From Candidatus Collierbacteria bacterium GW2011_GWB2_45_17 (GTDB lineage Bacteria; Patescibacteriota; Microgenomatia; UBA1400; MFAQ01), in the NCBI GenBank assembly GCA_001001485.1, contig LCKO01000001.1, positions 76,517 to 140,516 on the forward strand: 64,000 nt of DNA, given 5' to 3'. The number at the start of each line of letters is the position of its first letter. The first letter of the stretch is position 1. Below are positions 4,012 to 37,169 of this stretch, piece after piece. The translations under genes were made by a program, and so were the position numbers. The notes below the pieces were generated by a model. The model saw only the letters and a list, made by a program, of their open reading frames with translations, searched no databases and was not told the DNA's origin.

Positions 4012-4320
4012 GCCTCCAGGTCATAGTAAGCCGGATTCTGTCTAGGAGGAATATCTGTCTATGCTCGAGACTTTAGGGGCGGAAAAAGCACCTTAATCCC
4101 AGATCGTCGATTGCAGCGGGGCGGGTTACCACCCCTATACCGTTACTGGTATAGGGTCCCCGACTAATGCCGGGACGTTTCACCTTTAATCGTCTCTGTG
4201 GCCCTATCGTGCCTCACGAGTTGCCTCGTGAAGAGCCGAGTTTCCCCGGCCACCCTGCTTTTTAGCTGTCCGGACTTTCCTGTCGCCTAAGGCGACCATT
4301 CCCCACCAGATCCTGGAGGC
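4012..4320 (-). ncRNA. rnpB: RNase P RNA, bacterial type A, compact (about 309 nt)
   Basis: The reverse complement contains AGGAAAGTCCGGAC (CR-I), GCAGGGTG, CACAGAGA, AAAGGTGAAACG, GGTAACCCGCC and GACAGAATCCGGCTTA (CR-V). P1 closes the molecule as 5' GCCTCCAGG / 3' CCTGGAGGC. Confidence 0.9.
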
Positions 4321-24413: not shown

Positions 24414-24422
24414 AGATTCTTT

Positions 24423-24719
24423 ATGAACAAAGTTCTTCGACTGTTTTTTATCGCCATAGTGATATTCTCCACATATCATCTGATTCGTGATTTACTCACA
24501 AACTTTGGAATTCATAACTACATTGTAGATTTTGCACATCGTTCTCACTTATGGTGTGGAAAATTTTATCCTTGGGTTTGTCATTGGATAACAGTTCCGT
24601 CAGAAATTTTTACTTTAGTCGTGTCGTTAATAATACTAAGACGAAATAGACCAGGAACACTTGGAGTTTTAGTTTTGATTCAAGTACCACTATGGTTATT
24701 ATTAGTTTTATTGCCTTAG
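24423..24719 (+). CDS. Small 3-TM membrane protein, island paralog 1
   Basis: 98 aa; 'YHLIRDLLTNFGIHNYIVDFAHRSHLWCGKFYPWVCHWITVP'. A near-identical paralog lies at 28848-29144. Confidence 0.6.
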   Translation: MNKVLRLFFIAIVIFSTYHLIRDLLTNFGIHNYIVDFAHRSHLWCGKFYPWVCHWITVPSEIFTLVVSLIILRRNRPGTLGVLVLIQVPLWLLLVLLP

Positions 24720-27266: not shown

Positions 27267-27312
27267 CATACTCTTTGGTGCACACATAGCCAAATCTCTA
27301 CCATTTTTAGAT

Positions 27313-27434
27313 CTGGTGGGCGGGCGCGCGTCCTCCAGAGGCGGATCAGCCTATGGCTGAGGCGACCTCCCCGAAAACGGGCGGGAAATCCCAGAGTGTT
27401 GCCTGTTATAACGAAATTCGAACTTATTTTCGGG
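27313..27434 (+). repeat. att-like remnant B (with a 31-nt internal insertion)
   Basis: CTGGTGGGCGGGCGCGCG...GCGACCTCCCCGAAAACGGGCGGGAAATCCCAGAGTGTTGCCTGTTATAACGAAATTCGAACTTATTTTCGGG. Collinear with remnants A and C and with the tRNA flank. Confidence 0.65.
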
Positions 27435-27480
27435 ACCATTACTAATCTATTGGCTCACCGCTCCACACTCCGTGTCTCGC

Positions 27481-27550
27481 GTTTCGCCACCCCCGTCAGC
27501 CTCTGGCTGAGCCTCCCCTGCCGGTCCGCCTTTGGCGGAGGCGGAACCAC
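27481..27550 (+). repeat. R4 repeat, copy 2
   Basis: GTTTCGCCACCCCCGTCAGCCTCTGGCTGAG...CCGGTCCGCCTTTGGCGGAGGCGGAACC. Confidence 0.7.
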
Positions 27551-27566
27551 TTGCGCGCGATTTAAT

Positions 27567-27614
27567 ATTGTATCCCGACTGCGGTCGGGATGAATTGCTC
27601 TGCGAGCAAGCGCC
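27567..27614 (+). repeat. R3 hairpin repeat, short copy
   Basis: ATTGTATCCCGAC-TGCG-GTCGGGATGAATTGCTC-TGCG-AGCAAGCGCC. Confidence 0.7.
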
Positions 27615-27688
27615 AGCTATCGCTGTCGCATCTTTATGTTCGCCCGCCTTAGGCGGACGAAGCTCTCTCAATATATGGCTCAGAACAT

Positions 27689-27734
27689 CGTCATTGCGAG
27701 GAGTGCAATGACGAAGCAATCTATATAGATTGCT
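27689..27734 (+). repeat. R1-related repeat variant
   Basis: CGTCATTGCGAGGAGTGCAATGACGAAGCAATCTATATAGATTGCT, with hairpins GTCATTGC/GCAATGAC and AGCAATCTAT/ATAGATTGCT. Confidence 0.65.
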
Positions 27735-27777
27735 CTTCCTCGCCATAAAATATCAGATAGTTAGGAGAAATTTTACT

Positions 27778-27840
27778 ATCTGATATTTAAGGGTTGAGAC
27801 AGCATTGGCCTTCGGCCAAAGTGCCTGCTTCGCAGGCACA
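27778..27840 (+). repeat. R2 twin-hairpin module, copy 2
   Basis: ATCTGATATTTAAGGGTTGAGACAGCATTGGCCTTCGGCCAAAGTGCCTGCTTCGCAGGCACA. Both loops are TTCG. It ends 20 nt upstream of the ATG at 27861. Confidence 0.75.
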
Positions 27841-27860
27841 GTAGATGGTAGAATTCAATT

Positions 27861-28418
27861 ATGAATGAAAAATTACTCGAAAGAGTTAAAGGATTTGAAG
27901 AAACGCTAGAGAAATTTCCAGAAGTTCGATATGCAGGAGATCCTGTACTTAGACAATCAGCATTAGAGGTAACTGTGGAAGAAGGGATTCAGTTAGGAAT
28001 ACTTCTTGGCGAAGTGTTATTGCGTTATCGAGAGGCTGTTGGATATGGTAGGGGATTTGCAGCTCCGCAGATAGGAGAAAACAAGGCTGTCTTTGTCACA
28101 TTTGTGGAAAATAAATTACAGACATTTATTAACCCAAAGATAGTTGAGAAATCAAAGGAAACAAATTTCTATAAGGAACTTTGTTTAAGTTCTGGAATTA
28201 TGTCCGCAGATGTCGAGAGATCTGTTTGGATAGTAATGGAATGGACTGATACAGAAGGTCATAATCATAGCGAAAGATTTGATGGTTTTCTCGCTAGGCT
28301 ATATCAACACGAGGAGGCACATTTAAGAGGAAAACTAAACTTAGATGAGGCAGTAGATGGTGGAATAGAATTTATGCTTTTTGACCCGCTGAAAGAACAA
28401 CTTAGGGACAAAAGATAA
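27861..28418 (+). CDS. def: Peptide deformylase homolog (island-borne)
   Basis: The three PDF motifs are recognisable: 'GRGFAAPQIG', 'KELCLSSG' (an EGCLS variant with the Cys retained) and 'QHEEAHLRG' (HExxH). Confidence 0.7.
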   Translation: MNEKLLERVKGFEETLEKFPEVRYAGDPVLRQSALEVTVEEGIQLGILLGEVLLRYREAVGYGRGFAAPQIGENKAVFVTFVENKLQTFINPKIVEKSKETNFYKELCLSSGIMSADVERSVWIVMEWTDTEGHNHSERFDGFLARLYQHEEAHLRGKLNLDEAVDGGIEFMLFDPLKEQLRDKR

Positions 28419-28794: not shown

Positions 28795-28847
28795 ACCAGA
28801 CTCTCCTGGAAGAAAAATGTAAAAATACTAATAGCTACAATACAAAT

Positions 28848-29144
28848 ATGAACAAAGTACTACGACTACTTTTTACTACAATACTAGTATTCTCTGTATA
28901 TCATCTGGTTCGTGATTTACTCACAAATTTTGGAATTCATAACTATATTGTAGATTTTGCACATCGTCCTCACTTGTGGTGTGGAAAATTTTATCCTTGG
29001 GTTTGTCATTGGATTACAGTTCCTCCTGAGATTTTTACGTTAATAGTGTCACTAATCGTATTAAAGCGAAACAGAGTAGGAGTACTTGGGTTTTTAGTTT
29101 TATTACAAGTACCACTGTGGTTATTATTAGTCTTATTACCTTAG
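28848..29144 (+). CDS. Small 3-TM membrane protein, island paralog 2
   Basis: 98 aa, collinear with 24423-24719 with few substitutions. 'HLWCGKFYPWVCHWITVP' is conserved. Confidence 0.6.
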   Translation: MNKVLRLLFTTILVFSVYHLVRDLLTNFGIHNYIVDFAHRPHLWCGKFYPWVCHWITVPPEIFTLIVSLIVLKRNRVGVLGFLVLLQVPLWLLLVLLP

Positions 29145-30087: not shown

Positions 30088-31071
30088 TTATTCACGATCT
30101 TGATCAAAAATATGATCAATATCACTCCATCGATTTGCTTTTCCTGTTTTAAAAAAGCTTTTTGGATTCTCTTGTATATATCTAATCTCATCGTCCTGCA
30201 GCTCTAGTCCACACATTGGACACTTCATATACCTATATGGAAATTGTAGGGTTCCGTCTGGATTCCAGTCATAATCGATACCAATAATCAACCACAACGT
30301 ATCATTCTTACATGACGGACACTGACAATCTTCTATAAATGCATCTACATCATCAGGACCAAGCACGACATTTGTCTTTGAGAACTCTTTGATTTGCCCA
30401 GGAGTAAGTCTTTCATATTTGTCCTCAAAAAAAGTTATCTTTTTCATTAAATTTCCTTCAAATAGGTCTATCATGCTTTTGGTGACCTTCTCGAGTCTTT
30501 TCCAGAGAGATACATCAAGTGAAACAATCTTTGGTGAGGCAATGTGTACAGGTCTTTGGGCTAATGGTTCTAAAAACGAATACATAAACGGAAAAATATC
30601 CTTCGCCAGCAACAGATTAATATCGTCTAAATTGATATTTATCTCGTGATGTACAACTTCATTCCGCAGTTTAGATAATTCTAATAGTTTATCCATAATT
30701 GCAGATAAATCTACAAATTGGTTCAATCTTTTTAAGATAATTACAAAATTGGCTGTTCTCAACTCTTGTTTATTATTTTTTGTTCTATTAGTTGTTTTTC
30801 CCTCTAGTGAAAAAATTTTGATAACTTGTATACCTTCGTCATCAATTCGTTCCAAAATTAAAGCAGGGCAGATTCCCTTTAAGTATTCCTTAAATATTAA
30901 TTCAATAGAAATTTGAGTTTTGATCAAACAACTAACTATTCTTCGAGCATCGTTCCCAGATTCTAAAAATTCTTTTAAGCCTTCCTCTAGCAAATCAACA
31001 GAATCATACCCATATGATGTGTGAGTTTCGTCTCCGAACCTAGTTTTTTTGTGTCGATATACGCCTCCCAT
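30088..31071 (-). CDS. Hypothetical protein: N-terminal HEPN-like helical domain plus C-terminal zinc ribbon
   Basis: An Rx4H motif 'LSKLRNEVVHHE' sits at the end of an approximately 150-aa helical region. The C-terminus has 'CQCPSCKND...KCPMCG'. Confidence 0.45.
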   Translation of the reverse strand: MGGVYRHKKTRFGDETHTSYGYDSVDLLEEGLKEFLESGNDARRIVSCLIKTQISIELIFKEYLKGICPALILERIDDEGIQVIKIFSLEGKTTNRTKNNKQELRTANFVIILKRLNQFVDLSAIMDKLLELSKLRNEVVHHEININLDDINLLLAKDIFPFMYSFLEPLAQRPVHIASPKIVSLDVSLWKRLEKVTKSMIDLFEGNLMKKITFFEDKYERLTPGQIKEFSKTNVVLGPDDVDAFIEDCQCPSCKNDTLWLIIGIDYDWNPDGTLQFPYRYMKCPMCGLELQDDEIRYIQENPKSFFKTGKANRWSDIDHIFDQDRE

Positions 31072-31728: not shown

Positions 31729-31828
31729 GGCACAAATTATACTTCAATTGGGATACTCAACAACAATTTGGGAATAATTGTTCTATATCCGATAATATAT
31801 TTATATTAAATTTTTGCGTTTTCTGTCG

Positions 31829-31909
31829 CTTTTTGAAAGATAAACAGATTATTGTGGAATGGGAAAAGCCCTTCGCATCGCTCCGCGCGTGGGCGGGCGC
31901 GCGGGCGAC
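31829..31909 (+). repeat. 81-bp direct repeat, left copy (orphan recombinase 3' end)
   Basis: CTTTTTGAAAGATAAACAGATTATTGTGGAATGGGAAAAGCCCTTCGCATCGCTCCGCGCGTGGGCGGGCGCGCGGGCGAC, identical to 36984-37064. It would encode '..LKDKQIIVEWEKPFASLRAWAGARA', but no recombinase gene lies upstream of it. Confidence 0.9.
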
Positions 31910-31942
31910 CTCCCCGAATGTGGGCGAGATTTCCCAGAGTGT

Positions 31943-32035
31943 TGGCGGTTTACGAAAAATGTCGAACTTCATTTGATTAGCTCGGCCTTCGGCCTCGCTT
32001 GCTCCGGCGCGGCGCCCCCACCCGCCGCGCCTCCG
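31943..32035 (+). repeat. 93-bp perfect inverted repeat, left arm
   Basis: TGGCGGTTTACGAAAAATGTCGAACTTCATTTGATTAGCTCGGCCTTCGGCCTCGCTTGCTCCGGCGCGGCGCCCCCACCCGCCGCGCCTCCG is the exact reverse complement of 35304-35396. Confidence 0.9.
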
Positions 32036-32167
32036 CTATTTTTTGAGCGCGCGATTTTCTCGCCCTTCGGGCGAGCGAGGAAGAAATTTTTAGTTTTCCT
32101 TGCCCCGTCCGCCCACGCGCGGAAATAATTTTAGCTCCCACAATAATATCAGAATTAAATTACAAAT

Positions 32168-32893
32168 TTAATTCGAATTCATAATTTCTGATACCTTGTT
32201 ATTTTCTTCTATTAAAAAGATCCTAGTAAAATTATGATTAATTCCATTAATAGCTGTTTTAAAGATATTAGCGTCAGCCAAAGGATAATTGTTTATAACA
32301 CCTAGCCATTTTTCACCATTATTGCTATTTATTTCTTTGAGCTTTGACTCTTTTTCTTTAATTATTTTGTCTAGTATTAATTGCGTTTGCTCTTGAATGA
32401 CAATAATGGGGTTTTTGTCTGTTATTGCTCCTATAATTGCTTTACGCCTGTTGTCACCATGACTAATTTCATGAACTTCAACGATTTCTCCATAAATTTT
32501 CAAGTTTCTATTTCCAGGTGGCTTATTTTTTCTTATTAACTTATCCAAAGTTCTCACGAGACCTTTTTTGAATTTATTGAAATTTTTTACAGGCACTTTG
32601 AAAACCAACATTATAGATTTTCCTTTAGGAACCAGATTTTTGTATTTATTATCTAGTTGATTGCAAAATTTAATAAGGGTTTCCGTAGAAGTTCTTTTCT
32701 TGCTTTTCTCGTTTTCATCTTTATAAATAGATTCTGCCGTGGTAATTTCTAATGGGGTTTTATTACCACTACTATCGACACAATAGTAATCTGGAGGATC
32801 TCCACCCGGTACTATTTCAAAAGGTGGATATGAGATTGATTCAAGATAAACCTTTATCGACTTTTTCGCGTATTCTTCATCAACTCGCATCAT
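32168..32893 (-). CDS. Hypothetical protein (possible PD-(D/E)xK-like N-terminus)
   Basis: 'GGDPPDYYCVDSSGNKTPLEITTAE'. The assignment is weak. Lies inside the inverted-repeat-bounded segment. Confidence 0.4.
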   Translation of the reverse strand: MMRVDEEYAKKSIKVYLESISYPPFEIVPGGDPPDYYCVDSSGNKTPLEITTAESIYKDENEKSKKRTSTETLIKFCNQLDNKYKNLVPKGKSIMLVFKVPVKNFNKFKKGLVRTLDKLIRKNKPPGNRNLKIYGEIVEVHEISHGDNRRKAIIGAITDKNPIIVIQEQTQLILDKIIKEKESKLKEINSNNGEKWLGVINNYPLADANIFKTAINGINHNFTRIFLIEENNKVSEIMNSN

Positions 32894-33036
32894 AAATAAT
32901 GATTCGTCCTTAAACTGAAGACATTGTGTATAAAAATCATAATCATAAGTAGTTTATCATATAGAAGTATATCTGTTTGCACTATCACAATCCCCATTGA
33001 GTTTTTTATGATAAAGATTTACAATTGGAGTAGCTT

Positions 33037-34338
33037 ATGAAGACAATAATTATCTGGCTTTTTGGTTTGGGTTTTCTTTTAGGCCTTCTTATTACATTAC
33101 TTTTAAGAATGTGGTTGATCGTACCAATTTATTTGATACTGACTTTAGTAACTATTCCTCCTCTACATAATTTTTTATCAAAACGAGTTAATTTAAAACT
33201 AAATAGAGTGAGTCGTTTAATTTTAATTTTTTTACTTGTTCCATTGTCTATGCTAATCGCCACTCTTTACGGATTCGTTGATGGAACAACTACACTTAAA
33301 AAAACAGCTCAATTTTTTGCTGATGACGGTTCCTCTTTATATATGTATCCCAGCTTATACTGGCCCACTGATAAAGGCGGTTATGATGACGCTTCTAAAA
33401 ATCCAGCTATTGCAAGTGACAAGATGATATTTAATGTGTTTGATTTAAGAGAAGGATATAATGCTGGATTCGGAACGATAATGGCTCCTTTTAAGCCAAA
33501 CTTGAGACATGAAATTGAAAAAATATTGAAATATAAACCAAGTAAAATATTCAATTATTCGGATATCGTTGTATTCAATAAAGAAGTACAAAAAGACGAT
33601 AAGAGAGTTTTCATCCAACGAGTCATTGCTAAAGGTGGTGATAAAGTTCGTTTTGAAAATGGATATGTATATGTTAACGGAAAAAAGATTGATGAACCAT
33701 ATTTAGCAAAAGACCAATCAACCTATGCAGGTATTTTTTACAATCAAGAAAAGTTTATCAAAAATTGTGAGGAAATAATCGTACCTGCAAATCAATTGTT
33801 TGTTCTAGGTGACAATAGGATGCTTTCCGATGGTGATAGTAGAAATTTTGGCACAATTTCAGAAGATGAAATACTTGGATATTTACCAAAGGATTATCAA
33901 ACAACATTTTCAAAATATTGGTTAAAGAATAATCAAATGAAGGTTGTAAGTGATGGGGATAGTAACGAATTATTAACTTATTTTAATCAAATAAGGCAAA
34001 AAAAAGGAATGTCTAACTTAACCACATCAAATGATTTAAACATAATAATAAAAAATTATCTTAAAAGTGCTATTGAAAATAATGACTTCTCTAATATCCC
34101 AAAAAAATTAGCCACTCAAAAGGCATTACAGGAAATTATAAACAGAAATCCAATAGGAGTGACAATAATAGAAGGGGTGTATGATCTGGATACTTATAAG
34201 GGATATTTATATTTGGTTGCAGGCGACGCGAATTCCCAAGAGGCACAGAAAAATAGTTCAAAATTTGCTTTTTCAAGCTTTAGGACAGAAATCGATGGTT
34301 GTATGAAGTCTGGAACAATTATTGCTACTTTTAAATGA
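33037..34338 (+). CDS. Signal peptidase I (S26)-like membrane protein with a C-terminal extra domain; catalytic residues look substituted
   Basis: S26 boxes 'IQRVIAKGGDKVRFENGYVYVNGKKIDEPY' and 'VLGDNRMLSDGDSRNFGTISEDEILG'. The expected 'SM.P' nucleophile box reads 'YMYPSL', and the 'KR' general-base position reads 'QR'. Confidence 0.55.
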   Translation: MKTIIIWLFGLGFLLGLLITLLLRMWLIVPIYLILTLVTIPPLHNFLSKRVNLKLNRVSRLILIFLLVPLSMLIATLYGFVDGTTTLKKTAQFFADDGSSLYMYPSLYWPTDKGGYDDASKNPAIASDKMIFNVFDLREGYNAGFGTIMAPFKPNLRHEIEKILKYKPSKIFNYSDIVVFNKEVQKDDKRVFIQRVIAKGGDKVRFENGYVYVNGKKIDEPYLAKDQSTYAGIFYNQEKFIKNCEEIIVPANQLFVLGDNRMLSDGDSRNFGTISEDEILGYLPKDYQTTFSKYWLKNNQMKVVSDGDSNELLTYFNQIRQKKGMSNLTTSNDLNIIIKNYLKSAIENNDFSNIPKKLATQKALQEIINRNPIGVTIIEGVYDLDTYKGYLYLVAGDANSQEAQKNSSKFAFSSFRTEIDGCMKSGTIIATFK

Positions 34339-34355
34339 AACTTTGTGACACCTAA

Positions 34356-35102
34356 TTAAATAGCTGACTGATTTAGTTCTTCAACTAACTTTTGCGATTT
34401 CTCCATTAGTCGTTTTTCGTTATAATCTGGGGATATATTCAAAGATGCTCCTAATACTACCAAAGAAAACAGTAAGGTATTAAATAATCTTTTGAGTCCC
34501 ATTTTAAGTATGTCATCAGAATATAATTGCGGGCCCATAATAAGCTCGTGGTTATTTTGGGAAGTACGAATATTATTTTTTGTGATATCGTAAATTACAT
34601 TCGGATTATTGTGTAAAAAACGAGAAGACTCTTTGAATAAATTTAGAAAAACGATTTTGTGCCATTTGACTTGTTTTGCCTTTTGTTTGTCAGAAATAAA
34701 AACTTTTCCATCCTCTTCAACTCGTTTTAACATAGCCTCAATTTTATGATTTCTGAAAAAATTTCGGTAGTTCGTAGTGCGATATTCAATTTCTGTATCT
34801 GGAAATTCCTTAAAATAAGCAGAAAGTATAACTGCCTCCGCCACTACTCTTATCATGATTTCTGATGATCGGATATATCCGGAACTCAACAAATAAAAGG
34901 CGTTATCCATCAATGGTAAGGTTTGAGAGAGTAGAATTAGCAATGTCCAATTAGGATATTCGTTATCCTTTACTTTTCCTGATGTTGCCTGTAGAAATGA
35001 AGTGTAAACTTCAAGTAATTGATTAAACAAAATTTCTTCGTTTTGAAACTTTGTTTTGAATGCAGATAAAATAGTTTTTTCTTCTTTATCAAAAATTCCC
35101 AT
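34356..35102 (-). CDS. Hypothetical all-helical protein
   Basis: ORF only; lies inside the inverted-repeat-bounded segment. Confidence 0.45.
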   Translation of the reverse strand: MGIFDKEEKTILSAFKTKFQNEEILFNQLLEVYTSFLQATSGKVKDNEYPNWTLLILLSQTLPLMDNAFYLLSSGYIRSSEIMIRVVAEAVILSAYFKEFPDTEIEYRTTNYRNFFRNHKIEAMLKRVEEDGKVFISDKQKAKQVKWHKIVFLNLFKESSRFLHNNPNVIYDITKNNIRTSQNNHELIMGPQLYSDDILKMGLKRLFNTLLFSLVVLGASLNISPDYNEKRLMEKSQKLVEELNQSAI

Positions 35103-35162
35103 ATCTTATTTTATCATTTTTGTTCGCTTGTAGTTTTATTTGAAAAAGTTTATATTAAATTC

Positions 35163-35248
35163 GGAACCAGTAGTTTACAGATTGTCTTTTTTAATGGCGC
35201 ACTCGTCAGCAAGGAGACAGTCTAAGCTGGTTCCAACGGTGCGCCATT
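35163..35248 (+). ncRNA. Candidate structured RNA or DNA element with pseudoknot-type interleaved complementarity
   Basis: Three pairings: GGAACCAG (35163-70) with CTGGTTCC (35227-34); AGATTGTCT (35179-87) with AGACAGTCT (35215-23; one G-T pair that is a wobble only on the + strand); AATGGCGCAC (35193-202) with GTGCGCCATT (35239-48). Confidence 0.3.
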
Positions 35249-35303
35249 TAAAATTTTTGCGTTTTTTTAGTCGCTTTCAGTGACTTTTACGAGCCGACAG
35301 TTT

Positions 35304-35396
35304 CGGAGGCGCGGCGGGTGGGGGCGCCGCGCCGGAGCAAGCGAGGCCGAAGGCCGAGCTAATCAAATGAAGTTCGACATTTTTCGTAAACCGCCA
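35304..35396 (-). repeat. 93-bp perfect inverted repeat, right arm
   Basis: Exact reverse complement of 31943-32035. Its outer flank (35397-35470) is a degenerate inverted copy of the GGGCGGGCGCG..ACCTCCC att-like flank. Confidence 0.9.
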
Positions 35397-35601
35397 GCCA
35401 GTAAAGAGAAGAAAGAGATTGGGAGGTAGCGCTTTCCGCGCCCGCCTCCGCGGAAAGCGCGTCAAATCCGCCTTTTTTGAAACTTGCGGACAGGCGCCGA
35501 AAAAAGAAGGAAGAAAAAACGCAAAAATTGGGCTTCTTGAAAGAAGCCCTGCTCACTATCGTTCGCTTAAAGAACTTTTAGGAGATAAGATATAAAACGA
35601 C

Positions 35602-37158
35602 ATGATTAAATACATCGCCTATTGCAGGAAATCTACAGACGAACCAGACAGACAAATTTTGTCTATTGAGGCGCAAGTTGCCGAACTTGAGGAATTCGCC
35701 GCAAAGGAGAATTTAAAAATAGTTTCTTTCATTACTGAGAGTAAAACTGCCAAAGAGCCGGGAAGACAGAAATTTGCGGAGGTTTTGGAAAAGATTGAAA
35801 ACGGCGGAGCCGCCGGTATCATCTCGTGGCATCCAGACAGACTTGCAAGAAATTCTGTTGATGGCGGAAAGATTATCTATTTATTGGATACAGGAAAATT
35901 GCTTGATTTAAAATTTCCGTCTTTTTGGTTTGAAAATACACCGCAAGGCAAGTTTATGTTAGGAATGGCCTTTAATCAGTCTAAGTATTATGTGGATAAT
36001 CTTTCCGAAAATGTTAAACGAGGTAACCGCCAAAAACTCCGCCGTGGCGAGTGGCCGAATCAAGCAACTTTTGGTTACTTAAATATCAACAAAAAGATCG
36101 AAGTTGATAAGAAACGAGCCAAGTATGTGCAAAAAGCTTTTCAGCTTTTTGCTTCCGGCGGCTACGGATATGCGGACATCCGAAAATTTTTCAACCAAAA
36201 CAAAATTTTCAACAAGTCCGGTCATGAACTCCACCTTGATAAAGTCAAAAGAATTTTGACCGATCCGTTCTACTATGGAGTGATGAGATTTTGCGGCGAA
36301 CTTTATGAAGGAAAACACCAGCCCTTAATTAGCAAGAAGCTTTTTGATAAATGTCAAGAAGTTGTGAAACTCAAAAGCAGAAAGGTTAAAAACAACAAAC
36401 ATCTTTTTGATTTTCTGGGACTTGTAAAGTGCGGCGAATGTGGCGGCGCAATCACCGCTGAAATGCATACAAAGAATTACAAACGAACTAATAGAACGGT
36501 TGAGTATGTATATTACCGTTGTTCAAAAAAGAAAGGTGCTTGCTCGCAAAAATATATTGATAAAGAGGAAATTCAGAAACAACTAAAAGAGATTGTTTTG
36601 CGAGCATCTCTGCCGCCGCACGCCGCCAAAAAATTTCTTGAGTGGGCGGATAAAGACGTAAGTCAAGAAAAGGATAAATCATCGAGAATTATTTCGACTT
36701 ATCAACTGCAACTCAAGGAAACTGAGGAGAAAACTGATCGTTTGCTTGAAGGATATTTAGACAAGATAATTTCTCCTGAAGATTACCAAAAGAAAAAGAA
36801 CGAACTGGTTGAAACAAAATCGCTTCTAAGTTCCAAAATTAAGGAGATTTCTACAAACGGCGTTGAATGGCTCGAACCTTTCCAGGAATTCGTAAATAGT
36901 GCGCTTTCAGCGCAAAAAATCGCGCGCAAGGGTTCCGCGGACTCAGAACTGCGGTTCTTCGTCCAAAACATCGGTTCGAACTTCTTTTTGAAAGATAAAC
37001 AGATTATTGTGGAATGGGAAAAGCCCTTCGCATCGCTCCGCGCGTGGGCGGGCGCGCGGGCGACTGACCCCGTTCCTACCGAAATGTCCCGAAGTGTTGC
37101 CGGACTAGGACTCGAACCTAGAATATTCGCCTTCAGAGGGCGACGTCCTACCAATTAG
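35602..37158 (+). CDS. Large serine recombinase (resolvase/invertase N-domain + recombinase domain + zinc ribbon + coiled coil)
   Basis: 'IAYCRKSTDEPDRQILSIEAQ' (Ser nucleophile context), 'SWHPDRLARN' and zinc ribbon 'CGECGG...YYRCSKKKGACSQ'. The ORF tail reads through the att repeat into the antisense of tRNA-Gln, so the last 40 aa or so are probably fortuitous. Confidence 0.85.
   Translation: MIKYIAYCRKSTDEPDRQILSIEAQVAELEEFAAKENLKIVSFITESKTAKEPGRQKFAEVLEKIENGGAAGIISWHPDRLARNSVDGGKIIYLLDTGKLLDLKFPSFWFENTPQGKFMLGMAFNQSKYYVDNLSENVKRGNRQKLRRGEWPNQATFGYLNINKKIEVDKKRAKYVQKAFQLFASGGYGYADIRKFFNQNKIFNKSGHELHLDKVKRILTDPFYYGVMRFCGELYEGKHQPLISKKLFDKCQEVVKLKSRKVKNNKHLFDFLGLVKCGECGGAITAEMHTKNYKRTNRTVEYVYYRCSKKKGACSQKYIDKEEIQKQLKEIVLRASLPPHAAKKFLEWADKDVSQEKDKSSRIISTYQLQLKETEEKTDRLLEGYLDKIISPEDYQKKKNELVETKSLLSSKIKEISTNGVEWLEPFQEFVNSALSAQKIARKGSADSELRFFVQNIGSNFFLKDKQIIVEWEKPFASLRAWAGARATDPVPTEMSRSVAGLGLEPRIFAFRGRRPTN
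36984..37064 (+). repeat. 81-bp direct repeat, right copy (true recombinase 3' end plus att flank)
   Basis: Identical to 31829-31909. Confidence 0.9.
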
Positions 37159-37169
37159 ACGATCCGGCA
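37097..37169 (-). tRNA. tRNA-Gln (anticodon CUG), no encoded CCA
   Basis: Hand-folded from the reverse complement: TGCCGGA TC GTCT AATTGGTA GGAC G TCGCC CTCTGAA GGCGA ATATT CTAGG TTCGAGT CCTAG TCCGGCA A. It has a 7-bp acceptor stem, a GTTCGAGTC T-loop and a CU-CUG-AA anticodon loop. Confidence 0.85.

Follow-up and report, generated by a model that had tools for sequence, protein, structure and literature searches.

Perfect 93-bp inverted repeats beside a large serine recombinase of Candidatus Collierbacteria: probable attachment half-sites of a small integrative element at tRNA-Gln

Integrative elements and prophages driven by a large serine recombinase (LSR), such as phiC31, Bxb1, A118, SPbeta, Tn4451 and Tn5397, encode an enzyme with a resolvase catalytic domain, a recombinase domain and a zinc ribbon, have short and precise junctions with an attP-like site directly beside the recombinase gene, and carry a motif common to element-side and target-side half-sites with a 5-bp offset. 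The locus described here, part of a 64,000-nt stretch of a Candidatus Collierbacteria genome (the window), shares these traits. It differs in several respects. Integration is targeted to the very 3' terminus of a tRNA gene; the recombinase ORF itself contains the P half, and the P' half forms part of a conserved 93-bp tRNA-mimicking module. Once integrated, the element still carries another complete attP-like site, which is inverted. In addition, the elements of the family are tiny (3.4-5.2 kb, with one to a few accessory genes) and the host is a CPR bacterium.

In the switches operated by serine invertases (Hin/hix, Gin/gix, Cin, Min and Pin) the recombinase gene also adjoins a segment lying between inverted site copies. 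Those enzymes are small (~190 aa), act on 26-bp sites, require a Fis-bound enhancer and leave both orientations coexisting in a population, whereas here the enzyme is an LSR of 518 aa, the repeats measure 93 bp, the cargo is unrelated between elements and one orientation is all that has ever been seen. An integrase gene containing attP is known from Myxococcus phage Mx8 (intP), whose Int is a tyrosine recombinase. As in our locus, the crossover falls inside the recombinase ORF or at its end, giving different C-terminal tails in the integrated and excised states, although here only the non-conserved tail past about residue 500 is affected. Finally, in the tandem accretion of CIMEs and ICEs (ICESt1/ICESt3 of Streptococcus thermophilus), as here, recombinase-less modules keep both att-derived ends and use the same tRNA or gene target, and tandem arrays with internal att sites are formed in which the composite moves as a unit (PMC5704250). 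The known cases rely on tyrosine integrases and have the internal site in direct orientation; in contrast, the present family uses an LSR, and its dominant architecture places the internal attP-like site in an orientation opposite to that of the outer junctions.

Our analysis points, with a probability of roughly 0.6, to the two arms of the inverted repeat being copies of an element-borne P' attachment half-site, belonging to a small LSR-driven integrative element at the 3' end of tRNA-Gln. The locus comprises:

27310-27440, plus strand: decayed att module (module D), a P2-type hairpin like that of the recombinase 3' end, then a degenerate pseudo-tRNA/arm
31809-31822, plus strand: 14-nt copy of the M motif (AATTTTTGCGTTTT), the start of a right-end module resembling the recombinase 3' end
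31829-31909, plus strand: 81-bp block, direct repeat D1, 100% identical to 36984-37064
31910-31942, plus strand: Xa, a 33-bp P-type half-site variant, junction-proximal, ending ...GTGT at the junction
31943-32035, plus strand: left arm, matching the right arm at 93/93 positions; in the family the outer flank of such arms is usually host DNA
32036-32167, plus strand: left-arm inner flank (Ainner), in which a T-run completes a terminator-like hairpin, with a second hairpin and a degenerate inverted P2 fragment
32168-32893, minus strand: cargo gene 1, 241 aa, sole match DUF6175, sub-threshold
33037-34338, plus strand: cargo gene 2, a 433-aa membrane-anchored signal-peptidase-like protein (Peptidase_S26, E=3.4e-24)
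34356-35102, minus strand: cargo gene 3, 248 aa, weak DUF5677 match under the family cut-off
35247-35303, minus strand: inner flank of the right arm (Binner), with AAACTGTCGGCTCGTAA, a hairpin and the M motif (35252-35265, plus strand)
35304-35396, minus strand: right arm, P' half-site and hairpins, 93/93 with the left arm
35397-35529, minus strand: P1 module, which repeats the typical LSR 3' end, with an inverted M motif at 35516-35529 as its boundary
35530-35601, plus strand: recombinase upstream region, with hairpin GGGCTTCTTGAAAGAAGCCC and RBS, conserved with related elements
35602-37158, plus strand: LSR, 518 aa, with Resolvase, Recombinase and Zn_ribbon_recom domains
36984-37097, plus strand: P-side half of attR, made up of the second 81-bp block and Xc, a 33-bp variant whose junction end reads ...GTGT
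37096-37169, minus strand: tRNA-Gln(CTG), called by ARAGORN (Rfam tRNA, 65 bits), overlapping the end of the recombinase ORF

The earlier note described 31943-32035 as the exact reverse complement of 35304-35396, and a repeat search gave the same result (93/93, 100%, spacer of 3268 nt). Alignment showed that identity breaks off sharply at each end of both arms, and that the outer flanks have, as had been stated, only a degenerate likeness. The 51-nt arm core occurs exactly twice in the window and in none of 100 shuffles, and an nhmmer profile from 62 related arms found these two sites only (each E=2.3e-30). Recovery of the same sequence in at least 12 independent assemblies implies that the structure is not an assembly artefact. 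Positions 1-39 of the left arm form a P'-type half-site resembling the tRNA-Gln 3' end (TGGCGGTTTACGAAAAATGTCGAAC...), followed at positions 40-93 by two GC-rich hairpins; across the family the first ~39 nt of the arm are near-invariant and the hairpins bear lineage-specific insertions.

The LSR matches a PHROG integrase (E=2e-76), is named at NCBI as a recombinase of Candidatus Collierbacteria, and has relatives at 81-94% identity located in the same architecture. Its ORF extends across the att junction and ends on the strand antisense to tRNA-Gln(CTG), which is the chromosomal target and whose 3' end is the B' half of attR. The P half is the LSR gene's own 3' end, abutting the tRNA to form attR; at 28 related junctions the P module also abuts the tRNA-Gln 3' end, with a host-specific acceptor stem. 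The P' half of the left junction is the left arm, and the element extends from the outer end of this arm (31943) to the tRNA-Gln junction (~37097). The assignment of the left arm to the element side follows from its tRNA mimicry and from the position of the CGAAC motif, which has an offset of 20 in 47/47 sites joining P to an arm and of 15 in 28 sites joining P to the tRNA, that is, it lies exactly 5 bp farther from the junction in the arms than in the tRNA. [quoted passage not shown] The base adjoining the junction is T in the left arm and C in the right arm (the left arm and attR read GT at the junction, the right arm GC), and since attL and attR agree at this position in 15/16 elements across the family, it probably lies within the crossover overlap.

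Together with P1, the right arm makes up an intact, complete attP-like site, of which it is the right half. This site sits shortly before the LSR gene, inverted and head-to-head with the LSR promoter region. The earlier view of the right arm as an inverted att-like module with a functional link to the neighbouring LSR stands, and the distance from the arm to the start codon is 205 nt (~200 nt had been given). P1 contains the hairpin CGCTTTCCGCG/CGCGGAAAGCG, ends ...CTTTACTGGC at the junction and abuts every right-type arm in the family; its counterparts in related elements (92-98% identity) make up the 3' end of the LSR gene and abut tRNA-Gln. The recombinase upstream region has a predicted terminator-like hairpin on its minus strand. 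As for the inner flanks, Ainner is kept beside host-flanked arms (48 occurrences) and begins with 23 nt that recur, reverse-complemented, inside LSR genes, while homology to at least 20 related elements begins at 35247, the first 14 nt of Binner corresponding to the ...KTVGS codons of LSR genes.

To the left of the element, the "orphan recombinase 3' end" proved to be real, as 31829-31909 perfectly repeats 36984-37064; the 81-bp block is the 3' end of the recombinase ORF, a P-side module including the GC hairpin. The M motif occurs in three exact copies in the window versus 0.2 expected, and in LSR-less relatives (L094, L108 and L022) it precedes TTCTTTTT...P1 joined to tRNA-Gln. Xa shares only ~60% identity with 37065-37097 and aligns more closely with module D; in P0007, a close relative of the recombinase, an Xa-like stretch directly adjoins tRNA-Gln. 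Module D was not detected by the arm profile search of the window. It has GGGCGGGCGCGCG...GCGACCTCCCCGAA..CCCAGAGTGT, then TG across the junction, in common with the left junction, and the orthologous site in L063/L090 lies between the same host flanks and has a better preserved short arm; module D is a relic of an earlier integration near the locus.

The three ORFs reported between the arms were borne out, including the signal-peptidase-like label of the second. The first had no match in PADLOC or PHROG, and a protein identical to the third is encoded on contigs listed under 37 collection blocks, 24 of these contigs having been examined. Across 26 elements the cargo ORFs are almost all singletons, and the assorted accessory functions they encode include an ABC transporter, a beta-lactamase-like protein, a deformylase, an HNH endonuclease, a glycosylase and a dehydrogenase. 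The arms thereby bound a cargo module that varies from element to element.

Near-identical arms are present in ~125 contigs from Microgenomates (Patescibacteria) MAGs and groundwater metagenomes; exact matches of 30 or 22 nt to the arm core were found in 87 stretches of metagenomes and in 40 from species-representative genomes. The named hosts are mostly Microgenomates (Levy-, Roizman-, Woese-, Ames-, Curtiss-, Gottesman- and Shapirobacteria), many records bearing generic MAG labels only. The order is fixed: flank and arm, variable cargo, inverted arm with the recombinase 3'-end copy, LSR, and the LSR 3' end joined to the tRNA-Gln 3' end. Neighbouring arm pairs are convergent in 31 cases, direct in 10 and divergent in none, and the succession of inverted arm, P1 and LSR recurs with a constant inner flank at 25 loci. 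At the target, P1 as LSR 3' end adjoins the TG... of tRNA-Gln(CTG or TTG) with host-specific acceptor stems. Left-arm-type outer flanks are usually variable host DNA ending in GC or GT; the outer flanks of arms other than those joined to P1 are unrelated sequences, ending in GC in 97 and in GT in 8. Cargo modules lacking an LSR, with arm...P1 joined to tRNA-Gln (L094, L073, the L022 group, L018 and L013), are analogous to cis-mobilizable elements and accretion (PMC5704250). Rearranged states, in which the LSR promoter side adjoins tRNA-Gln (L108, L094 and L022) or an internal unit is in the opposite orientation (L107 and L103), imply that inversions have occurred during evolution.

The homogenisation of the arms claimed by the earlier note holds across the family: arm pairs within an element differ by a median of 1.1%, versus 3.75% between elements, 9/20 pairs are perfect, and the two arms of an element carry private SNPs in common. 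This closer likeness of same-element arms indicates gene conversion between them. Strand exchange by LSRs is not known to produce a heteroduplex longer than 2 bp, and would therefore not homogenise 93 bp.

These data bear on the proposal that the 3.3-kb segment flips, that is, that the LSR recombines the inverted arms as a programmed switch, changing the neighbours of outward-reading sequences or switching cargo or recombinase expression. In its support, perfect inverted repeats adjoin a serine recombinase, the arms are homogenised within elements, convergent arms are kept in 31 pairs, neighbouring units became inverted in relatives (L108, L094, L022 and L107), and inverted attP/attB sites allow LSR inversion in reporter assays (PMC11722253). 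Nevertheless, we consider it unlikely. All inspectable assemblies of the element, at least 12 (L001-L004, L132-L134, L136-L141 and L142-L143), share one cargo orientation, and so give no indication of a flipping switch. The orientation is also the same in 25/25 related loci that combine an LSR with an inverted arm upstream of it; there the LSR-side arm is always followed by one inner flank (AAACTGTC...) and the far arm by the other (CTATTTTTTGCGCG...), and the swapped combination expected from inversion was never found beside an LSR. Searches of low power revealed neither an inverted-junction contig nor a protein from the chimeric ORF expected after inversion. Moreover, the junction bases differ (T versus C), conversion over 93 bp exceeds LSR strand exchange, and a promoter logic is not evident, the cargo genes lying on the minus, plus and minus strands and promoter-like matches being no more than shuffled sequence gives. 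Each arm is a P'-type half-site; the two sites are attP-like, or attL-like and attP-like, and neither attP x attP nor attL x attP pairs are synapsed by canonical large serine integrases (PMC11722253). Cargo inversion, through RecA acting on the repeats or an off-pathway LSR reaction, would at most be a rare side reaction.

It is similarly improbable that the inverted P' arms serve as a landing pad for gene capture, with whole cargo modules swapped between elements, whether through a double recombination event at the arms or through homologous recombination within the conserved 93 bp. If true, this would account for the differing cargo between almost identical arms in nearly every element. In its favour, cargo is unrelated even where arms are 95-100% and LSRs 81-94% identical, 98% identical cargo occupies two different frameworks (L027 versus the L022 group), L135 joins the cargo of this window (99.9% identical) through a truncated, diverged arm to unrelated genes, and L049 has a chimeric arm that combines both arms of L036. 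However, a donor-recipient pair with a clean swap at both arms was not found, L049 is a 1-kb contig that may reflect assembly collapse across the repeat, and the inverted orientation need play no special part if related elements exchange cargo by ordinary homologous recombination.

We regard as very unlikely that the arms are mainly structured nucleic acid, that is, terminators, insulators or a small tRNA-like RNA at the cargo borders, from which role their inverted orientation would follow. The second hairpin of the left arm followed by CTATTTTTTG does resemble an intrinsic terminator, the distal hairpins persist despite replaced or inserted sequence (L064, L029 and L007), and the arm end is tRNA-3'-like (...CCGCCA). 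But folding energies are no better than those of shuffles (z -1.0 to -0.1), the arms have no Rfam family or ARAGORN call and were missed by a terminator scan, the T-run follows the left arm only, and conservation peaks in the 39-nt non-hairpin segment at the junction. A chimeric or mis-joined contig is hardly conceivable, for although arms shared by many genomes of one community do break assemblies (L003 stops at 35391 and many contigs stop inside arms), the identical structure comes from different assemblers, many samples and contigs of 30-170 kb, and dozens of other genomes show the same architecture.

The reading of the arms as P' half-sites of an integrative element has its own difficulties. 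The left junction joins P2, and not host DNA, to the arm and is attP-like, so easy excision is not predicted by canonical LSR rules either. Recombinase binding accounts for only ~39 of the 93 bp and not for the two distal hairpins, the strong identity within elements shows that the arms interact physically, which could include crossovers, and the rearranged family members (L108, L094, L022, L107 and L103) also have to be accommodated. As the LSR gene has a P2-type 3' end and the internal site retains the P1 type, this copy may be a hybrid or immobile. Neither an empty tRNA-Gln site nor a circular form of this element was found, and its mobility is deduced from the family.

Under this preferred reading, the LSR would bind the first ~30-39 bp of each arm, a stretch predicted to imitate the acceptor and T-arm of tRNA-Gln, except that its outer motif is displaced by 5 bp. 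Recombination of the left junction with attR, in direct orientation, would mobilise the whole 5.15-kb unit. The composite may have arisen when a cargo module and an LSR module accreted in tandem and the junction between them ended up inverted, so that it would not be resolvable by deletion; what keeps the arms identical would be gene conversion, together with shared selection by one recombinase, and not regular flipping. The LSR integrative element resides in a Candidatus Collierbacteria genome, and its arrangement is a new architecture among LSR integrative elements.

The exact inverted repeat described in the earlier note was confirmed: the two arms are 100% complementary over 93 nt with 3268 nt between them, and ORF and domain searches agreed with what had been claimed for the enclosed genes and the adjoining recombinase. 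The 51-nt core of the arm occurred in two copies in the window and in none in shuffled sequence. The DNA comes from Rifle groundwater, where its host is a population of Candidatus Collierbacteria (Microgenomates), and the locus comprises the following features.

31829-31909: perfect direct repeat of 81 bp, identical to 36984-37064; a copy of the LSR ORF's 3' end placed immediately to the left of the left arm
31943-32035 (+): left arm
35304-35396 (-): right arm
35602-37158 (+): large serine recombinase (LSR), 518 aa
37096-37169 (-): tRNA-Gln(CTG), overlapping the end of the LSR ORF

The identical 81-bp block adjoins a diverged stretch of 33 bp. The neighbouring protein of 518 aa carried the Resolvase (PF00239, 4e-21), Recombinase (PF07508, 6e-15) and zinc-ribbon (PF13408, 2e-11) domains and matched a PHROG integrase (2e-76); it is a bona fide large serine recombinase. 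The cargo between the arms consists of one Peptidase_S26 protein and two proteins without known function.

A search with a 30-nt arm core gave exact matches in 87 stretches of JGI/ENA metagenome contigs, and a 22-nt core matched 40 stretches in GTDB species-representative genomes, whose named hosts were mostly Microgenomates lineages, many records carrying generic MAG labels only. No arm was present in IMG/VR, and a phage origin was discarded on this ground. When all arm occurrences were aligned in register, and arms, flanks, LSR genes and tRNAs were mapped, a dominant order was recovered. Its left part consists of a variable flank abutting arm(+), the inner flank Ainner (CTATTTTTTGCGCGCGCGATTTT...) and 1.2-3.3 kb of cargo; its right part consists of the inner flank Binner (AAACTGTCGGCTCG...AAAAACGCAAAAATT), arm(-) abutting P1(-), the LSR gene (+), and P1(+) abutting tRNA-Gln(-). 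P1 is a module of about 100 bp that contains a GC hairpin, ends in ...CTTTACTGGC at the junction and supplies the final codons of a typical LSR ORF; its inverted copy lies upstream of the LSR gene, adjoining the arm. Adjacent arm pairs were convergent in 31 cases, direct in 10 and divergent in 0, and direct pairs stood beside an LSR gene only where that gene was truncated or frameshifted. As a side observation, Ainner and Binner share homology with two neighbouring segments of LSR 3'-coding sequence (...AAAATCGCGCGCGCAAAAAATAG and AAACTGTCGGCTCG...; for example in the arm-bearing contig stretches L032, L041 and L089, and at 36900-36990 in the window), which in the LSR gene are separated only by a 25-nt hairpin.

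In the window, the homology of the LSR to the main clade ends at 36927, where the 3' end changes to a second type, P2, found beside the left arm as well; otherwise the window has the dominant architecture of the family. Its left junction, P2 against arm, is a tandem junction whose flank is itself of P type, with the 14-nt motif M ahead of it at 31809-31822, and it looks like the internal junction of a tandem array. An Xa-like stretch was found directly at tRNA-Gln in P0007, a close relative of this LSR.

The comparison allowed us to define probable attachment sites. At the 3' end of the LSR gene, P1 abuts the TG... end of tRNA-Gln (anticodon CTG or TTG), a side that is chromosomal because its acceptor and T stems vary from host to host. 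At the internal site P1 abuts TGGCGGTTTACGAAAAATGTCGAAC..., which is the arm, and the sequences bordering the arm at the element's far end are unrelated. Accordingly, the junction of P with the tRNA corresponds to attR, that of flank with arm to attL, and that of P1 with arm to an uncut attP-like site. The right junction, P against the tRNA-Gln 3' end, was observed both in the window and at 28 related junctions, and the flanks of the left junction were unrelated in at least 48 occurrences; precise junctions to target DNA bound the element on both the attL and the attR side. Variants of the recombinase from two older assemblies (P0003 and P0005, Collierbacteria/Microgenomates GW2011 MAGs) have C-termini that imply deletions of about 84-95 nt, at about 37046-37147, which would remove the att junction together with the tRNA-Gln 3' half; either the deletions are real, or the GC-rich hairpin was locally mis-assembled.

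The arm mimics a tRNA 3' end, as it starts with TGGCGG, the reverse complement of ...CCGCCA, and a T-loop-like CGAAC is located at offset 20 in 47/47 arm sites as opposed to offset 15 in 28 tRNA-Gln junctions. In large serine integrases the outer motif, that of the zinc-ribbon domain, sits 5 bp further inward in attB than in attP half-sites (PMC11722253), and because the two offsets match this rule we infer, with good support, that the arm is a P' half-site. Only the first ~39 nt of the arm are near-invariant; positions 40-93 form two GC hairpins, a form kept despite insertions and replacements, and in the left arm a T-run follows the second hairpin, giving it a terminator-like look. A GC-rich insert of about 30 nt (TTTACACTGAGCTTGCCGAATGTGCC), which may be a tiny mobile hairpin sequence, was seen repeatedly in the loop of the second hairpin (L007, L014, L016, L033, L040, L042, L078 and other arm-bearing stretches), and strings resembling CTGAGCG...GTCGAAGG occurred in the host flanks of several arms. 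The tetranucleotide spanning the junction, G(C/T) followed by TG, is the reverse complement of the last acceptor bases of the tRNA, discriminator plus C74. Since its position -1 was the same in attL and attR in 15/16 elements and tracks the discriminator base, this position probably lies within the 2-bp crossover overlap; in the window, the left arm and attR have T here, and the right arm C.

Together, these results led us to favor, with a probability of about 0.6, an LSR element, or an accreted composite of cargo plus LSR, of ~5.15 kb at the 3' end of tRNA-Gln. The mobile unit would extend from 31943 to about 37097, bounded by the outer junction and attR in direct orientation, with the LSR binding P and P'. 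The right arm would belong to an attP-like site of the recombinase module itself, retained upstream of the LSR gene; because it is inverted relative to the outer sites, this internal site would be unable to split the composite by deletion and, speculatively, it might titrate or regulate the recombinase. The arms would be kept identical by gene conversion and shared selection. No circular contig of the element was found, nor was an empty tRNA-Gln site among the contigs carrying the identical neighbouring 246-aa protein, where all sites were occupied.

The ORFs between the arms were nearly all singletons across 26 elements. Their functions included an ABC transporter, a beta-lactamase-like protein, a peptide deformylase, an HNH endonuclease, an HhH-GPD glycosylase, a 2-hydroxyacid dehydrogenase, a SAM hydroxide adenosyltransferase and an EEP nuclease. 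Peptide deformylase genes recurred as cargo (L089, L017 and L110), and another one lies in a low-GC stretch left of the element, at 27861-28418 in the window. LSR-less modules running from the arm through cargo and the motif AATTTTTGCGTTTT to P1 abutting tRNA-Gln were found in L094, L073, the L022 group, L018, L013 and L028, and tandem arrangements with internal junctions of P1 with arm in L036/L016/L068/L122, L020 and L116. An IS or MITE was discarded, as the cargo lacks a transposase and the body consists of 1.2-3.3 kb of unrelated, variable genes; the sole flank shared at the element ends was the G(C/T) of the att junction. An integron was also set aside, the recombinase being of the serine type, not a tyrosine IntI, and the cargo genes lying in mixed orientations. 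The reading of the cargo as a defence system was dropped because PADLOC gave 0 matches for the three cargo proteins; the one PHROG match, that of the peptidase, was to a family without known function.

As to the surroundings of the element, a decayed attachment module was noticed at 27310-27440, inside a GC-rich non-coding stretch of 600 bp (27270-27860), orthologous to a short-arm site in the contig stretches L063 and L090. A reading of the interval 27.4-31.9 kb, from this relic to the left junction, as a single cargo element was not supported, the relic being solo and common to L063/L090, where the SNase gene is syntenic. The near-perfect hairpin at 27730-27805 matched a plant miRNA model on both strands through symmetry only. 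Just left of the element, a 327-aa protein (30088-31071, -) has weak HEPN/Csm6-like similarity (Pfam HEPN_RiboL-PSP below cut-off; PADLOC PDC-S64, 1.3e-7) and may be a defence gene. Two paralogous segments of about 300 bp (28847-29144 and 24422-24719, 84.6% identity) lie within a small membrane-protein ORF, and a fragment homologous to that protein was found in L040/L080, in the interval from the recombinase start to the internal att site. The window also contains an RNase P RNA of bacterial class A at 4012-4316 (-), with 105.5 bits against a gathering score of 100.

A further reading, to which we give a low probability, is that the outer junction, the inverted attP-like site and attR make up a functional three-site LSR system with rare flips, of the cargo or the LSR gene, or cargo swaps. 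If so, occasional flips or swaps would be driven by the recombinase itself or by RecA through the homogenised arms, and the tRNA-Gln locus would be an integron-like platform for gene capture and shuffling built on a serine recombinase. Speaking for invertibility, neighbouring units have been inverted in the course of evolution: in L108, L094 and L022 it is the promoter side of the LSR, not its 3' end, that adjoins tRNA-Gln. In L107 and L103 the internal unit lying between 16-bp inverted copies of AATTTTTGCGTTTTTT is reversed relative to a truncated LSR gene, and this ~280-bp att unit may itself have been inverted during evolution. In the window the same motif forms a perfect inverted pair around the unit, at 35252-35267 (+) and 35514-35529 (-), and is also present at 31809-31822 (+).

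The earlier note had proposed that the LSR flips the 3.3-kb segment between the arms. Inverted recombination sites do flank this segment, the arms being identical at 93/93 positions and their outer ~39 bp being a recombinase half-site. However, one orientation was found throughout the contigs bearing the element (L001-L004, L132-L134, L136-L141 and L142-L143), from varied samples and assemblers, and the same orientation was shared by the 25/25 related loci in which an inverted arm precedes an LSR, the swapped pattern being absent. The inverted arm on the LSR side was followed by Binner in these 25/25 loci, and host-flanked arms by Ainner in 48; none of the related loci had beside the LSR the swapped inner flank expected from a flip, and no pair of loci shared a cargo in opposite orientation. 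An inverted left junction (outer flank, 93 nt and the right inner flank in reverse complement) was absent from metagenome contigs and from viral contigs (0 hits each), scans that are of little weight as the arm loci of the metagenome collection are without the cargo of this element (L005-L091, p241/p248 absent). Among 5.8 billion proteins, a search of low power for the chimeric ORF expected from an inversion yielded only the 89-aa ORF of the standard state, itself called in a single assembly. For a phase-variable switch, the outcome is negative so far.

The note had also taken the perfect arms as a sign of recombination or conversion, and this part stood for homogenisation within the element, the single orientation speaking against flipping. 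The arms of one element differed by a median of 1.1% (9/20 pairs perfect), compared with 3.75% between elements, and private substitutions, including those in the hairpins, were common to both arms of one element; the arms therefore exchange information, a point in favor of invertibility. Serine recombination produces no heteroduplex able to homogenise 93 bp. Furthermore, an LSR exchange between the arms would leave mismatched ends, because position -1, probably in the overlap, is T in one and C in the other. In serine integrases, pairs of two attP-like sites, or of an attL-like with an attP-like site, are not productively synapsed (PMC11722253), and since both arms are P' half-sites no productive synapsis of the two by the LSR is expected. 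We consider a true invertible switch unlikely, and a cassette-exchange platform trading the mostly singleton cargo improbable as well.

The only variant of the element was L135 (ERZ27254729 k141_69171, 1-1300), where unrelated genes (a DUF5680 protein and others) adjoin a cargo of 99.9% identity, the link being only the inner 34 nt of an arm with 3 substitutions; this is a rearrangement, not an inversion. The same sample holds L003, whose recombinase contig ends 6 nt inside the arm (35391), an end for which structural heterogeneity at the right arm is a poorer explanation than the arms being repeats common to the community genomes. The pair L049 and L036, the single exchange mapped at the population level, was rejected as proof of site-specific insertion or excision, given that the L049 arm is chimeric with a crossover within the arm; either homologous recombination or assembly collapse accounts for it.

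A mainly structural or RNA role of the arms, with their conserved hairpin form, has little chance of being correct, as fold energies were no better than those of shuffles and alifold on 59 distinct arms gave no consistent structure; Rfam detected nothing at the arms at gathering and E<=1 thresholds, and ARAGORN no pseudo-tRNA. An assembly artefact is hardly credible for an arrangement seen across varied samples and assemblers.

In its recombinase and its junction geometry, the element fits the definition of LSR integrative elements. In contrast, Hin/Gin invertase switches employ a small enzyme of ~190 aa with a C-terminal helix-turn-helix, and not 518 aa with LSR domains, and they show two orientations, whereas only one was found here in at least 12 assemblies of the element and 25/25 related loci. 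Such switches also use a recombinational enhancer with Fis sites, and Fis may be missing from CPR genomes. For tyrosine-integrase islands, cis-mobilizable elements and tandem accretion have been described (PMC5704250). Like the family described here, CIME-ICE arrays contain recombinase-less modules keeping both att-derived ends at the same target; they differ in using a tyrosine integrase and in that their internal att site is direct, so that modules excise separately, whereas here, in the window as in 25 loci bearing an LSR, the junction of P1 with arm is inverted. A retained inverted attP-like site was not found described for serine integrases in the literature searched, nor was this family, which is best called an architectural variant of the LSR element with accretion logic.

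In summary, the analysis places an isolated repeat in a defined family: very small mobile elements of Microgenomates that depend on a serine recombinase. Little is known of how these tiny, uncultured bacteria exchange genes. Because probable attachment sites can now be given for the LSR, namely the P module plus the 39-bp arm in the element and the tRNA-Gln 3' end in the host, the enzyme is testable as an integration tool. The inverted attP-like site could be a lock, a regulator or a site of rare inversion or exchange. Furthermore, accessory cargo (transporters, deformylase, beta-lactamase-like enzymes and nucleases) and many recombinase-less modules share one site, which suggests that single-gene cargo flows steadily into a single hot spot of the chromosome.
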